From assembly GCF_041146345.1 (NCBI RefSeq), contig NW_027191409.1:868001-932000 (forward strand): a stretch of DNA of 64,000 nt. The letters run 5' to 3'. Shown in pieces: positions 46,541 to 58,513 of this stretch (its first letter is position 1; each line of letters starts with the position of its first letter). A program made the translations under genes and the position numbers. Under the pieces are notes generated by a model that saw only the letters and a program-made list of their open reading frames with translations, made no database searches and had not been told where the DNA came from. The stretch is from Neodothiora populina. Taxonomy: Eukaryota.

Positions 46541-48593
46541 AGAAAGGAATGAAGGCTGATGGATAGTAGACTGGAAGGGAACGGCAAGGGAATGGCAAGC
46601 GCATAAGGGCGCCGGACGTCGAGACAGCAGCACCTGGCGAGACGATGGGCGCGGATGCAAAAGAGAGAAAGAAGATGTGGAGAGAGATGTACAAGGATGT
46701 GCTGTGTGTGCTGTATACAACAACGCCTGTTGAGTCTGGTGGAGACCTTGTTTGAATGTGCTCTGGATTGACACGAAGAACAGTTGCTGCTGATGCCGCT
46801 GTCGATAATGATGAGATTATTATTATTATTATTGTTATCGACAGAGCCAAGCTCCATGCATGTATGAGAGAGAGGTTGTTGCTGTTCTAAACCCTTTTTA
46901 AACCAGCTCCTACACTTCTGTGCATGTGCTGCGAATAAAAAGTACTGTGGAAGGTATTATTGTCAAGGAACTGCTGTGTCGCTGACTGCTGATCTGATCA
47001 TCAATTGCATCGAATAACTCTCTCCGCCCTACGGATTCACCGAGACAAAGTACAAGAAGCCGCTTCGAGCTTCAGCTCCTCCTCGCTCCAGATCCACATC
47101 CGTTTCCTCATCGCTTTTTTCTGATGATACAGCAGCAGTATTACTTTGCCTATCTTGCTTGTTATGCCGATGTCCCGACATGACGCCGTCTGTCCCACAG
47201 ATCCGGGGGAGACGCTTGGATGACTGACTTCTACACATGGGGAAAAGCTTCTCTGCCTTACTCGTGTGATAATATAATACCTTACTCTGCACGCACATAA
47301 GGTAGGTACTTTATGGTGACCATCTTGACGTGCACTACTTCAGGCGCAGGCATATGTCTACATCTCGTGTTCTCATGTCCAATTATAAGTAACGATGATG
47401 TCGCTCTGCGTGCATTAGTAACAATCCATAGCATGCGATTTGTGAAGTTGACGTGATAACATGCAGCCTACCTTCCCATGCTATATGTGCAGTAAAATGT
47501 CATGCATCCTTGCGTGACGCGGCTCATAACACTTGCATGCTCGCCCCCGTTCTTCTTCAGCTGCTTCATCTATAATTGATTATTCACAATATGCACGAAC
47601 AAGAGAATCCCAGTGAGCACTATATGTTGCAAAGTACAATTGAAAGTCTTTCTATTGGAGCACGAGCGACATGGAAAAAATACATATAACTTTTTTTTTG
47701 GGGGGGGGGCGTTGATCCTGCCGAAAGACCAGCATATCCCACAGGCCGCGATGCATATTCTGCCGCGCCCATATAACTCCCAGACGAGACCTGATCTAAA
47801 TATGGTATCATCCGAAAAGTCGTCTTGCGCTGCCTGTCGCTCCATATAACAGCCGTAATAACCATCTTGACCCCACATCAGGGGGGGAAAGACGGGTATC
47901 TCTGTCCGTCCGTCCGTCTGTCTGCCTGCCTGCGCTCTCCTTGTCAAAGAACGCCTGAAGCAGCACACGTGGGGTATCATCGCTGCACAGAACCGAAAAG
48001 CAGCTTTATATAAATGCGCTGCCAGAAAATAGCCCTGAACGAGGCTTCCATGCCACGTCAAATGCCAGGATCGTTTTTGCTGTAATGGGGGTCCATGTGA
48101 GAAAAAAGCTAGGAAACAACGCGCGTGTGCAAGGAAAATGTGAGAATGAAGAAAAGCTGGAACCGAAGCAGGCCGAATCTATCGTTGCAACAAATGCCCA
48201 GAGCCGTGATGCAGACGAGTGCGCTCGCCGCGGCTGTATCTCTCCCATGGTATGCAGGCGGCCTCGTAATCAGAGAAGCCAAAGCACGCGCCGGGTGAAA
48301 GAGTTTGCCGCGAAATAAGTCATAATCGTTAAGAGCGCCGTCTCCGTACGATGCAGTCGAGCCCAAAGGAGGAGATAAAGTCAACGCTTTCTATCATGCT
48401 GATTGGGGTATGAATAAAAGACGATCTTTCGAGACTTTGTCGCGCCAGTGATTCGTGTGTTTCGAAGTCCAGTGTACCGAAAAGCACGCAATCGATATAA
48501 AAAAACAAAAACCAGATAATGTAGGAAAATGCATGACCCGTTTGCCAGTGTAGGTGCTGGCTTGTCATGAAGACGTCAGTGGGATAGGCTGCT

Positions 48594-50686
<2,093 letters not shown>

Positions 50687-53600: not shown

Positions 53601-55902
53601 AAGACCAACCACAACGACAAAGGGGCTAAAACCATGTCACGCCCAGTGTCTCAAAATGAGACCGATGATCTGTTTGTTGGTATCGGTGCTTGGGCAGAAG
53701 AATGCCTTAACCGTGAGACGGAGTCGCGAGACCCAACTGTGACAGGCGAGGACATGGATCTTGACGCTGATCAGCCCCTTAAAGGCGCTATAGAGCACGA
53801 TGTTTCGTCTCGGGCTTGCGATCCCCCGTTATACCTGCTCAGCCACTCATCTGGCCATGACGACGAACACCTGAAATGGATGTCTAATGCTACAGCGAGG
53901 ATAGCAGCAGGTGTCGATGCCCGAGTGCACTTCGAATCTGAGGCACTCCTGTCTACCCGTCCGAGCAATCACTCTTCATCACCACTTGATCGACTGGCTA
54001 CCATTTCTGAACATGCACCACACATCAAGCTTGCAGGCTCCACCAAGGGATTGACTGAGATCATACAAGCAGAATCAGGCAAGCTCGAGACTATCGAGGG
54101 CGAGCGTCGTCACACGGGCGAGCCGGTCGGAAAATGGCAGCCATCTTGAGAGGACATCACTTCCGTCGATACACATCTGCAAAAGAATAATCCCAGCACG
54201 ACACGCATCACCACAACCACGCCTAACGACTATATCTATACTACGAAGCTATCGATGATTCCCTCACTCGAGTGTGCACAGTAGCCCTTAAAACAAACAT
54301 CGCTTGACAGGCTCACTCCTACAACACGTCAGCACTCTCGAACTACCGTAGTGTGACTTCTTCTTCTAGACAACTCGGAGCAATCTCAGACACCCTGGTC
54401 GATTTCTACATCTCGACCAGCCTTGTCAACACCATGTCGATCCTCATCTCATATTGATGACGGGATATCTTTACTTCCCTTTCACCACGAGACATCTTCG
54501 ATGTTTGACACTTTCACGAGACGTGCATCTACACGTACCGATTACACTATACCGAACTCAAGTAGGCTTCACAGCCGAAGTTGTATCAAATCTCACCTGC
54601 GGATTGCCCCATCCTCACATGGCGTCATTCTATGAGAGCTCCCGGTCTACGCACCATGTATGTCTGTCGTACCTGCGACTTCTCTAGGCCTGTCGAGGAG
54701 AATATGATAAGCACCACAAAGTCCTCGGGCCGTTCATGCTCGACGCATCTGATCACCATCAGAGGCAAGTGCATATGTCCTAGAGATGCCAAATGGCACA
54801 GGAGTGCCTTTAGCCTGCTCCCACATAGCCTAGGAAACAGTCCGCACCCTGATCGAGAACGACAGTGTCGGAACCAACATGAGCATGGAGCAGTGCCACA
54901 TCGTGTGCATACTCGCCGCCACGAATCATTTTCTTGCCTTCACTTAGGCCGCAATAAACGTTACTTACCTTGCTCGCCATCACTTTGTCTTACAAGCAAG
55001 AGTCGCCAAGGTGGATAGAGCAATCGCAAATAAACATACACTCCATAATCTTATCATTTTTTCCCCTGATCGCTACAACTCGCTGTGCTCCTGATATTTT
55101 GTTGCCATCTTACCATCATTAGACTACAACACTTCACGGCCCTTGATGAACTTGGGCTTCTCTCACAGTAGATTACCTCGCTCCTCACATACATCTGAAG
55201 GAATTTAAGGGGCAACGAAAAGGGGGAGTAAGAGAAAAGACGCTCACTCTACACAAACAAAGCTCGATTGAGCCGCAGCGTAATCAGAAAAGAAAAAGAG
55301 GGGAAAAGGGGTAGCATAAGCACCAGCATAAGACGTACCTGCGTCGCACTACATGCCGTGGCCATGCTTACGTTTACCAGTAGCACGACATATATCGCCT
55401 AAAGAACTTTCCCATTCCTCCGTCGAGCGTCTGTTTCGCTACTCGGTCAGCCTTTAGAGATGGAGTAAGAAGCATAGAAAGTGCACATCTAGCCGTTTTC
55501 GCACATCGCTCTTGCTCACTTACGTCTACTTATACATTTCATATGCTCCCTTACATACCCAATTACAAAACCTCCCTTAGGAACAGTAGAGAAAGAAAAG
55601 AGAGAAAAAAGGTGGGTGACACCAGTACGACCAACACGACACCAGCACAGCGTCATTACTACCAGCACAACAAGTACCTGGCAGGTACCTGCATTGTATC
55701 ACACACACCATCTACATACATAATTTTACATTATGCAGTAGTCAGCTTCTGCGAGCAGATACTACTTCCTGGCGCACGACATGTGTTCTTGCGTCTGTAC
55801 CTTTTTGGCGCTCTTGTTCTGTCGGGGTTTTGACTCTTTGACTTTTTGTCGTTGTTCCACTTGCTGTTGATCGTTGGTCTGTCGTGGCTTTGCCCCTGTG
55901 TT

Positions 55903-55949
55903 ACTACTGCTGCTGCTGCTGCTGCTGCTGATGCTGCTGATGCTGATGC
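55903..55949. repeat. (CTG)n/(CTGATG)n microsatellite
   Basis: actactgctgctgctgctgctgctgctgatgctgctgatgctgatgcc downstream of the cyclophilin gene. Confidence 0.85.
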
Positions 55950-56310
55950 CTGTCGCCTGTTACTACCACTGCTGGTGCATGTCATGGCATGGATGTCGTG
56001 GAAGTTGAATGTAGAAGTTTGGGTCGAGAATGGGTTAGAGAAATATGTTGTGTTTCTTTAGCCCGAAGTGCACACTATACGATGTGATACATGCGGGAAG
56101 ATGTATCGCATAGGCAATGGTTCCTCCAAGGTCAAGGGTGACATTCACAGACTAAAACGACGGACTTGTCACGTATGCATAGGGCTATGGATGTGTTACA
56201 CGAGAATGGTTGAGAGTTGCACGACAGACTAATCTTACAAACACATGTTTGTGCAACACTGACAGACAAGAGCTGACGACTTTGACTTTGACTTTGGATT
56301 TGATAATCGT

Positions 56311-57569
56311 CTATGCGGATACTTTCTCATAGGCGCCGGACGAAGACGAACCTCTAGCGCCAGCCGTGGCTTTGACGAAGACGGCACACACGGCAACGAC
56401 GACCGCGAGAGCCCCAATTTTCTGGAAAACAGTCAATCCGTCCGAAGATGAGACGTCGTGAGATTCTTGGATCTCCTCTTCGTGGTGGTTCAGAGGCTCA
56501 TCACCCTTCTCGTTGACGGGAGCGTCGGTCGCTGGAGCAACAGCAGCAGCTGGTACATCAGCATCTTCGTGGAGGTCCGAGACTGGTTCAGCAGAGCCAA
56601 TGAGCGCTGACAATATCATCAGTATGCTTTTATCCCCAGCTATTATGGAAAAAGGTGCAAACTAATCCACCATTGACAATACATACTGTTTGTCAAAGTA
56701 GATTAGAGCTCAGCTCTAATACCTTCTTCGGGGACCTCAAGCTCGCCAGACTTGGCAATTTTGACCGTCTTGAGGGGCTTGTTGTTGCCCGAGCTAGTGG
56801 GGAGCTTCTCAATCTTGTCGATGATCTCGTAGCCCTCGAGGACCTCGCCGAAGACGACGTGGCGGCCATCGAGCCAGGAGGTGATGACGGTAGTGATGAA
56901 GAATTGACTGCCGTTGGTGTCCTTGCCAGCATTGGCCATGCCTGTGGGGAAGTGGTATGAGCATATTTCATTGACCGATGTCCATCAATATACATACTGA
57001 GCAGGCCCTTCTTGCTGTGCTTGAGCTTGAAGTTCTCATCGGGGAACTTGGCACCGTAGATGGACTTGCCGCCAGTGCCATCACCCTTGGTGAAGTCACC
57101 ACCCTGAATCATGAAGTCCTTGATGACACGGTGGAAGGTAGATCCCTCGTAACCGAAGCCAGACTCGCCAGTAGCGAGGGCCCTGCGCCTGTCAGTATCT
57201 ACGGTCTTTCCTTCGGTTCCTTCGGAATGGATTCACCTGAAGTTCTCGGCAGTCTACAAGGTGTCAGCATGGTTGTAACAAAAAGGCTGGCCGGAATACT
57301 TATAACATACCTTGGGGACGGTCTTGCCGTAAAGTCCCATGACTACACGACCCAGAGGCTCATTGTCATACTCAATGTCAAAGTAGACCTGTTACGTTCA
57401 TTAGCCAATGCTCGTCGTGATGATCTCGAGTCGAGTAGGACCATCACTAAAGTACCTTGTGAGTGATCTTGGGTCCCTTTCCGGCAGCCTCGGTGGACTG
57501 GGCAAAGTAGATGAAAGAGAAGGTCAAGATGACCAAGAGAGAGATGATGTATCTCTGAATGCCGGCCAT
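56311..57569 (-). CDS. cypB: Cyclophilin B-type peptidyl-prolyl isomerase (secretory pathway); short isoform ends at 56703 (RAEL), long isoform at 56311
   Basis: Signal peptide [28 protein letters not shown], then [32 protein letters not shown] and [17 protein letters not shown]. Introns at ~57390-57455, ~57256-57310, ~57183-57236 and ~56942-56996, plus an alternative terminal intron. Confidence 0.93.
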
Positions 57570-57997
57570 TGCTACTGCTCTTCGTCCAGATCAGATCAGA
57601 TCAGATCGGTAACAATTGAGGTATGGAGAGGGAAGACAAGTTCGGGGAGGGGTCAGAGTACAGTACAGATAGACCAGATGGACCAGATAGACCAAGCTTG
57701 ACCATGTTGGAGAGCTGAGACCCTGCCAAGATCAGGAACCTGACTCGGACAAATGGCCCGTGCGCTATACCGATGTTCCGCGCTGCAACTTGTGTATGGA
57801 CCATAATTCATCCATGACTTTTTGATATTGGGAGATTACAGCACACCGCGACAGTTGAGTACCTCTTGCGCATATCGACAGCGCTGTAACATTCACTCGC
57901 CAGTCACTGGGACTATCAGAGAACGACCAGCTAAGCGCCATACGCTTGCCGATACCACTCTTCTACACAAAGTCAATCGCCTAGATTATTTCCGACC

Positions 57998-58513
57998 ATG
58001 GTGGTAAGCACGCAGCGCGAACCCTCTCGGAACGACCATCGCCAGTACTCAGATCTCAGAAACACTAACAACAACTCTCAGTTCATCTTCGGCGCCAACT
58101 TCCCCGAGTCTCGCCTCGTCAAAGGCGCCCTCGAATCCTTCTACGGCATCGGACCCAAAGTCTCCCAGCGCCTCATGGCACGCTTCTTCATCCATCCGAC
58201 GGCGCGAGTGGGATCACTAGGCGACAAGCAAGTCAACGATATAGCCGCCGAATTATCAACGATGAAAATTGAGAACGATCTGCGGCGGTCATTGCAAGAC
58301 AATATCAAACGCTTGCGTGACATGGGCACATATCGGGGTCGTAGGCATGCCATGGGTCTACCTGCGCGGGGACAGAACACAAGGTCACAGGTCCGTCTCT
58401 TATCTCTATAATGCTCTCTTATGCTGCTGTGCGATGCATGCGAGGAATCACTGCTGACCGAAACACAGATCGCCACGGCGAGGAAACTCAACAGGACCGT
58501 ACGAAGAGGCTAG
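57998..58513 (+). CDS. SWS2: Mitochondrial small ribosomal subunit protein uS13m
   Basis: MV|FIFGANF...ALESFYGIG...IENDLRR...GTYRGRRHAMGLPARGQNTRSQ|IATARKLNR. Introns at 58004-58081 and 58391-58468. Confidence 0.93.

Follow-up and report, generated by a model that had tools for sequence, protein, structure and literature searches.

The cypB locus

The window analyzed here is a 64,000-nt stretch of Neodothiora populina DNA (NW_027191409.1:868,001-932,000, forward strand), and all positions below follow its own numbering. On its minus strand lies the cyclophilin gene cypB, rebuilt as five exons that encode a 210-aa cyclophilin with a signal peptide and the ending GIRAEL, the stop codon of which ends at 56703. 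In the direction of transcription, the features of the gene and of the sequence behind its stop codon are:

57456..57569, minus strand: exon 1, with the start codon and a putative hydrophobic signal peptide (gene model; N-terminal KD mean up to 1.85)
57311..57388, minus strand: exon 2 (gene model)
57237..57253, minus strand: exon 3, 17 nt (gene model)
56998..57182, minus strand: exon 4, with the catalytic Arg/Phe/Met/Gln motif [13 protein letters not shown] (gene model)
56723..56941, minus strand: exon 5, the part common to both forms, with the end of the PF00160 domain and closing in VPEE (gene model and domain match)
56717..56725, minus strand: donor 1, AAG|GTATTA, hidden in Glu-Gly-Ile codons (GT at 56722); weak, no +5 G
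56703..56723, minus strand: read-through tail GIRAEL of the soluble form with its stop codon, an HDEL/KDEL-type end (gene model)
56662..56706, minus strand: RNA hairpin over the stop codon and donor 2, with GTA in the loop and TGT in the stem (predicted only)
56681..56689, minus strand: donor 2, ACA|GTATGT, 16 nt past the stop (GT at 56686); from the sequence, its use leaves the soluble protein unchanged
56607..56623, minus strand: branch site ACTGAT (56623) and acceptor CAG (last G at 56607), common to both donors (from the sequence)
56419..56606, minus strand: membrane exon, acidic Pro/Ala luminal stalk ending in a conserved G-L-[ST]-x-x-x-K cap (predicted)
56374..56418, minus strand: one transmembrane helix, I268-V282, with K267 and K283 on either side (predicted)
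56311..56373, minus strand: 20-aa cytosolic tail ending YEKVSA, a variant of a conserved [YK]EK[ST][ML]A end, with stop at 56311 (predicted topology)

The initial annotation had pointed to the GIRAEL-ended frame with its stop at 56703, to a weak donor at 56722 within the Gly-Ile codons, and to a GTATGT donor at 56686 behind the stop that could use the same acceptor at 56607; all were located in the rebuilt gene. The further claim, that donor 1 joins G|CG in frame to a 98-aa exon with an acidic stalk, a hydrophobic helix, and a YEKVSA tail, likewise holds. Donor 1 falls within the Gly205-Ile206 codons, and joining 56723 to 56606 removes a 116-nt phase-1 intron, creates an Ala codon (G|CG), and yields an open frame of 302 aa. 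The 98 added residues begin with the acidic Pro/Ala stalk; the hydrophobic helix after it spans 15 residues (I268-V282) and reaches a 19-residue Kyte-Doolittle mean of 2.38 at best, and the 20-aa tail closes the protein. The predicted layout of this long form is that of a type I membrane cyclophilin, consisting of a signal peptide, a luminal PPIase domain, one C-terminal TM helix, and a short cytosolic tail. Weak AG|GT donors evidently work in cypB, since two of its constitutive introns use them without a +5 G.

By its sequence, the gene is an ordinary CypB of Group G. The PF00160 PPIase domain is matched in the last exon with an E-value of 2.4e-20 and is complete in the spliced model, and the translated protein contains every one of the active-site residues R55, F60, M61, Q63, A101, N102, F113, W121, L122, and H126 (CypA numbering; [29 protein letters not shown]). 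Residues 8-26 are hydrophobic in the manner of a signal peptide (KD mean 1.85), and the last exon is 77-86% identical to named fungal CypBs. The gene is single-copy: among 11 cyclophilin matches in its own genome, one is identical (100%) and the next paralogue reaches at most 62%, while the extra exon (P0001) matches itself alone. The fungal orthologues in Group G include N. crassa Cyp3 (Q7S7Z6), F. graminearum Cyp4, A. nidulans Cyp6, and S. cerevisiae Cpr5 (Pemberton 2006, PMC1618848, available text). Like the window gene, Group G CypBs carry a signal peptide, PF00160, and an xxEL end; those of N. crassa and Fusarium end in EGIHVEL, much as the short form does here (PMC1618848, available text). 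The RAEL end of the window protein does not fit the PROSITE retrieval pattern [KRHQSA]-[DENQ]-E-L. Judged by its letters, it does fit the wider tolerance reported for human cells, in which any residue except Pro is accepted at -3 and HVEL is a strong motif, RAEL not being among the motifs mentioned in the available text (PMC2140024).

Several neighboring features were also recorded. A plus-strand frame at 57935-58411 lies head-to-head with cypB, the two starts being about 430 nt apart; it resembles mitochondrial ribosomal protein S13 (SWS2-like), and the arrangement suggests that the two likely have a promoter in common. Simple repeats occur at 55880-55950 (a CAG/GCA run) and at 56270-56300 (four copies of GTCAAA, likely in the cypB 3′ UTR). 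Elsewhere, a 624-codon antisense open frame (48588-50462, plus strand) overlies the minus-strand frame at 48594-50426, presumably a DEAD-box helicase of the Ded1/DDX3 type.

Conservation of the membrane exon

A search of 1.84 billion representatives gave 15 homologues of the extra exon at E<=0.001; the closest named extension is that of Aureobasidium, with 51 identities over 94 aligned columns. A Pfam search of the exon returned no family, and an ESM Atlas search gave matches all below 0.85 and no lead. From three protein searches, with the best 120 matches of each retained, 107 short and 112 long forms were parsed; 41 matches that were other cyclophilins or could not be parsed were left out of the junction count. 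The named sources of the long forms are Dothideomycetes, Sordariomycetes, Leotiomycetes, Lecanoromycetes, and Eurotiomycetes (Exophiala). The suggestion of the initial annotation that other ascomycetes share the extension is thus well founded, the exon being present in five classes and 112 listed long forms.

The junction itself is uniform. All 112 listed long models diverge from the short form directly after VPxE, and their first new residue is D (47), G (45), E (11), A (6), or V (3), all residues encoded by GNN codons, in keeping with a phase-1 join after the G of a Gly codon. The 107 listed short forms end in G[IT]xxEL-like sequences, mostly HAEL, HVEL, RAEL, or RGEL. Among the long forms the stalk is variable; what they have in common is a G-[LW]-S-x-x-x-K cap, the helix, and the end of the tail. 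Seven long models, all from Sordariomycetes (P0106, P0183, P0237, P0242, P0255, P0271, and P0274), are fused to a Trm112-like protein (PF03966); these are probably mis-joins with a conserved downstream neighbor, and they were left out of the tail counts. The other 105 of the 112 listed long forms have one hydrophobic helix followed by a tail of 6-27 residues. In an AlphaFold model of the Aureobasidium long form P0165 (83 alignment rows), the PPIase domain is followed by a stalk (about 212-262) that is unstructured and of low confidence, and then by a helix at 267-289. Since the long forms are mostly gene predictions, which themselves depend on the donor signal, they are evidence of the conservation of the exon, not of its expression.

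A hidden donor kept weak

Conservation at the donor was assessed with a degenerate pattern that covered ten to twelve codons before it, left the last Glu free to be GAA or GAG, and put no condition on the downstream sequence. The scan found at least 116 metagenome loci in 62 clusters; these are redundant and related, and counts drawn from them overstate independent events. The last Glu codon before donor 1 is GAA in 116 of 116 listed loci (62/62 clusters), compared with 6/116 and 23/116 for two control Glu codons in the same pattern and 58/249 (23%) upstream. Where the next residue is Gly (112 listed loci, 58 clusters), its codon is GGT without exception; control Gly codons are GGT in 36/210 (17%), and a control upstream Glu-Gly dicodon reads GAAGGT in 1/62. 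In the remaining four of the 116 listed loci, the sequence is a spliced join (three) or runs out at the end of the contig (one). AAG|GTA is invariant in 58/58 clusters and a +5 G occurs in 0/58; even where a Thr codon (ACN) would permit a +5 G, ACG appears in none of 16 listed loci. AAG|GTA is therefore fixed at synonymous sites: donor 1 is conserved, and conserved weak.

By an automatic rule, an in-frame TM exon is present in 57 of the 58 listed loci with a GT and at least 450 nt downstream; one of the 57 (L019) looks unrelated, and the single miss (L011) shows the exon on inspection. The expectation that the frame and the helix would be kept in orthologues is thereby borne out. A branch-supported acceptor lies in phase 1 in 49/58 listed loci, versus 13 and 3 in the other phases, and the length of the intron, 74-314 nt across loci, is unconstrained modulo 3.

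One could suppose that both the downstream ORF and the GT arose by chance and that the gene makes the soluble enzyme alone, and indeed the RNA evidence for splicing at donor 1 comes from orthologues only. Neither element looks fortuitous, given the 15 homologues of the exon and the synonymous-site constraint on the donor; the in-frame TM exon, the listed long forms, and a Botrytis porri locus annotated with both proteins (see below) speak against chance as well, and we regard it as exceedingly improbable.

Splice outcomes in orthologue transcripts and annotations

Transcript-like contigs were taken as those metagenome loci of at most 1.4 kb that are colinear with the protein over all upstream sequence present (28 contigs); L103, open over 100 codons but missed by this filter, was added to give 29. 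Colinearity extends over 160 residues in fifteen of them and over 100 in the others, the shorter length letting two genomic contigs through as well. The whole intron is retained in 18 of the 29, which places the TM exon in the 3′ UTR. Five others are spliced from a donor just past the stop to the acceptor of the TM exon, as judged from gaps relative to genomic partners or a relative:

L070 and L100 against L017: 26>94
L108 against L016: 34>108
L048 and L102 against the relative L064: 26>98

Donor 1 is used in three (L037, L092, and L103). Two more are without branch site and without partner, and one ends at the junction and is uninformative. An in-frame join of stalk, TM helix, and tail is found in two of the 29, L092 and L103, the former with one in-frame stop upstream; loss of the intron in these species is possible, since neither contig has a genomic partner. 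In L037 donor 1 is joined 54 nt too early, to an acceptor upstream of the one for the TM exon, and the frame closes after three residues; its product, having neither xxEL nor anchor, would be secreted or degraded. Complete long forms of 284 and 287 aa are encoded on contigs of 1,013 and 985 nt, which leave little room for introns, and the retained and donor-2 forms are both present for an L017-like species. Small gaps in the tail-coding region, about 400 nt past the donor, separate L060 from its genomic partner L055 and perhaps reflect a further small splice or a strain difference.

Public annotation already contains both isoforms. The Botrytis porri locus EAF01_007507 (NCBI) carries a 208-aa (KAF7900204.1) and a 292-aa protein (KAF7900205.1) that share their sequence as far as VPEE. 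The consecutive accessions KAF7920494.1/5.1 form another such short/long pair, and in Alternaria alternata and Colletotrichum graminicola the two lengths occur in separate assemblies. Taken together, the codon constraint on the donor, the three splice outcomes in orthologues, and the doubly annotated Botrytis locus support the earlier proposal that one gene gives rise to a soluble and a predicted type I membrane form. An assembly shows whichever splice path dominates, which makes the long form probably the minor product.

These data also bear on whether the downstream frame might be a small membrane-protein gene with its own start, mis-joined to cypB by gene predictors. An in-frame ATG does lie within the branch site (56620; ORF 56311-56661), and the frame is often called alone (P0209-P0223, and an 89-aa Exophiala model). 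Among 33 distinct loci, though, a Met occurs in the open intronic stretch in only 7 and in the stalk in only 10, with no conserved start, and independent translation of the exon is on these counts largely refuted. A separate gene would also leave the invariant AAG|GTA unexplained, and it is at odds with the position of the frame in the 3′ UTR of cypB transcripts and with the existence of spliced joins (L092, L103, P0164, and P0199). We consider this account very improbable.

A more serious possibility is that the membrane form is ancestral or the main one in some lineages, and that the apparent switch is inefficient splicing of a constitutive intron, with the xxEL tail rescuing unspliced transcripts and no regulation involved. 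The assemblies display the dominant path alone, not ratios or responses to conditions, and the long forms are mostly automatic gene models; both points leave room for this account. It sits poorly, however, with the retained or donor-2 form in 23 of 29 transcript-like contigs, with the strong conservation of the soluble tail in 107 listed short forms, and with a donor kept weak even where Thr ACN permits a +5 G (ACG in 0/16 loci); we judge it unlikely, if far from negligible. Whether or not their ratio is regulated, the pattern of conservation indicates that both products are under selection. The explanation that we find highly probable is a single cypB with an optional last intron, the hidden weak donor determining whether a soluble or a membrane product would be made.

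Donor 2 and its predicted hairpin

The initial annotation had framed the switch as a choice between donor 1 and donor 2. This stands insofar as a donor past the stop is spliced to the same acceptor in the five orthologue transcripts above; it needs amending in that retention accounts for 18 of 29 contigs and that a donor-2 motif, GTA[CT]G[TC] within 30 nt past the stop, occurs in 8 of the 57 distinct loci listed, the window included. Donor 2 is lineage-restricted, and the soluble form usually comes from intron retention.

Donor 2 goes together with predicted RNA structure. The window RNA from 56706 to 56662 is predicted to form a long stem (-20.7 kcal/mol, z -4.22, 0/200 shuffles), and each of the eight loci having donor 2 has a predicted stem that contains this site or carries it at its tip. 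The mean z of the hairpin is -2.72 in these eight and -0.39 in the 49 loci without donor 2 (p=1.4e-4, kinship ignored), and z falls below -2 in 5/8 versus 5/49. The stem sequences differ among lineages, and an 11-pair core in a group of three shows pair-keeping one-sided changes only. In one relative, whose exon is 60% identical, a gene call begins with VNGGLVC, the peptide that the 3′ arm of the window hairpin encodes in one frame; conservation of the intron stretch under the hairpin is suggested, because this peptide is shared although the exon is only 60% identical. Any masking of donor 2 would be at most partial, since the donor is used despite the stem in L108 and L070.

Two broader readings were discarded. 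A general post-stop hairpin in all orthologues is not borne out (z<-2 in 9/56, versus 6/54 in an upstream coding control), and an RNA thermometer finds no support, since in the predictions most of the window hairpin remains paired between 15 and 60 C. As a separate observation, the I-R-A-E-L-stop codons of the window (56703-56720, minus strand) pair into an 8-bp hairpin that covers positions +3 to +10 of the donor-1 intron and competes with the foot of the donor-2 hairpin for the same bases; orthologues do not generally have such a donor-1 hairpin (mean z -0.3). A different hairpin directly after the stop, with mostly pair-keeping one-sided changes, occurs in five loci without canonical donor 2 (L033:62-115, L035, L039, L063, and L024).

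The junction formed by donor 2 lies 4-16 nt past the stop, inside the 50-nt limit for EJC-type NMD, a pathway that operates in Neurospora (PMC6173133, available text). Being within 50 nt of the stop, this junction would thus be expected to escape such decay. We entertain, at slightly less than even confidence, a model in which donor 2, where present, competes for the common acceptor and would commit the transcript to the soluble form, escapes NMD, and has its competition damped by the hairpin.

The putative cytosolic tail and the possible fate of the membrane form

The tail that replaces xxEL has its own consensus, [YK]-E-K-[ST]-[ML]-A-COOH. Among the 105 listed long forms, K is at -4 in 87, E is at -5 in 69, A is last in 86, and K[STN]PhiA closes the tail in 72. 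The initial annotation had read the window tail as an AP-adaptor YxxPhi signal. YEKV does fit that motif, which is found, however, in only 6/105 listed tails (4/105 without Val), so that its presence in the window is incidental and the idea that it sorts the protein beyond the ER falls with it. The YEK motif survives as part of the conserved [YK]EK[ST][ML]A end, of which YEKVSA itself is a variant. A COPI dilysine reading fared no better, as a C-terminal KKxx or KxKxx is present in 0/105 listed long forms and K at -4 stands alone in 87. Nor did pattern searches point to a wider class with this tail in the N. populina genome, although distant look-alikes may exist: a strict EK[ST][LMI]A-end pattern matched 0 proteins genome-wide, and a looser pattern gave 11 matches versus 7 for a control, none of the 11 resembling a relative with TM helix and tail except one unrelated frame.

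The proposed sequence of events runs as follows. The intron would usually be kept, or else be removed through donor 2, the latter route applying in some Dothideomycetes and likely in this fungus, to give a soluble enzyme of about 208 aa ending in xxEL; both outcomes are seen in orthologues. Use of the hidden donor, also seen in orthologues, would instead replace the xxEL tail with stalk, single hydrophobic helix, and short tail, and identical anatomy suggests the same switch in N. populina. The long form would be type I, its luminal PPIase domain carried on a flexible acidic tether of about 60 aa, and would presumably exchange receptor-mediated xxEL retrieval for a cytosolic [YK]EK[ST][ML]A-COOH signal. 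The tail would most likely act as a coat-binding signal that cycles the long form through the early secretory pathway, at ER exit sites and the cis-Golgi, where it might fold or escort membrane and outgoing cargo as NinaA does; we would put this sorting step at roughly an even chance.

Nearly as likely, though a little below even, is a static role, in which the short TM helix would keep the membrane form in the ER membrane near translocon or calnexin-cycle clients and the tail serves as a retention or partner-binding motif. This alternative accepts the splice switch and differs from the preferred explanation in sorting alone. The hydrophobic last residues of the tails look like export signals, which counts against it, as does the lack of canonical KKxx or KxKxx in all 105 tails. 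The brevity of the hydrophobic core (in the window, 15 residues with a Lys on either side) and the K at -4 in 87/105 tails, half of a KKxx motif, point the other way, and yeast Cpr4, with its putative TM domain, has been reported in the ER (PMC1618848, available text).

Relation to known systems

Among secretory cyclophilins, Cpr4/Cpr8 join a luminal cyclophilin domain to a C-terminal membrane anchor, the Cpr4 group being reported in Saccharomycotina only (PMC1618848, available text), and Drosophila NinaA is likewise membrane-anchored (PMC2447506, available text). The long form is like them in layout, a luminal cyclophilin with a C-terminal anchor. NinaA and Cpr4/Cpr8 are separate genes, whereas the anchor described here is an optional exon of canonical cypB; by analogy, the long form would work like NinaA or Cpr4 rather than being one, its nearest named relatives all being CypBs.

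The closest fungal splicing precedents are PTC7, in which retention of an intron adds or removes a TM helix (PMC7491326, available text), and the conserved alternative splicing of SKI7/HBS1 (PMC3597508, available text). In these, as in cypB and in cryptic PTS1 isoforms, one gene gives two proteins through a long-conserved splice choice. Unlike them, cypB splicing adds a TM helix and at once deletes an ER-retrieval tail, and its donor overlaps codons of the soluble form. The cryptic PTS1 isoforms were reportedly described by Freitag in 2012. In immunoglobulin mu, a donor inside the last coding exon decides between a soluble tail, made by read-through, and a TM exon, reached by splicing, and it is in this sense that IgM resembles cypB. 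The IgM choice is set by competition with an intronic poly(A) site. The soluble-form transcripts of cypB, in contrast, continue through the TM exon, so that retention or a second donor must decide.

For the same family, the Swiss-Prot entry PPIB_NEUCR (Neurospora CypB) reportedly lists a long membrane and a short ER-lumen isoform. The available text of the Group G survey makes no mention of a membrane isoform such as the window gene would produce; it classes N. crassa Q7S7Z6, manually re-annotated, as "PPIase only" at 22.6 kDa, and the Aspergillus, yeast, and S. pombe CypBs in it have other ends and no VPxEGI donor context (PMC1618848). No Aspergillus long form was among the matches listed, in searches that were biased to the VPxEG context and cannot show absence. 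The best-studied CypBs, those of Aspergillus and the yeasts, thus appear to lack the donor context, and for this reason the switch may have been overlooked.

Implications

In the literature searched, no description of a membrane CypB isoform arising by splicing was found, though supplementary splicing tables may list the event. The word "cyclophilin" is absent from the main texts of PMC3577648, PMC7749757, bioRxiv 10.1101/2021.11.08.467853, and PMC10906886, and the available text of the review PMC13162259 does not mention such an isoform. The splice switch is real and deeply conserved and has apparently gone unstudied. SKI7/HBS1 is the textbook case of conserved alternative splicing in fungi; to our knowledge, alternative splicing that keeps two selected proteins across a whole subphylum is rare in these organisms.

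A bolder proposal, which we offer tentatively, is a regulated switch throughout the Pezizomycotina, in which the weak codon-embedded donor, joined in some lineages by a hairpin-masked decoy donor, would set the ratio of soluble to membrane CypB according to secretory load or temperature, the membrane form being the filamentous-fungal counterpart of NinaA/Cpr4, sorted by an undescribed [YK]EK[ST][ML]A signal.

The switch affects a core ER foldase that figures in the engineering of strains for protein secretion. For one and the same species, databases give a 208-aa protein or one of approximately 270-310 aa, so that studies by cDNA overexpression, deletion, or proteomics may have handled one form only. 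The locus further offers a new candidate cytosolic sorting motif and a possible case of control of donor choice by RNA structure.
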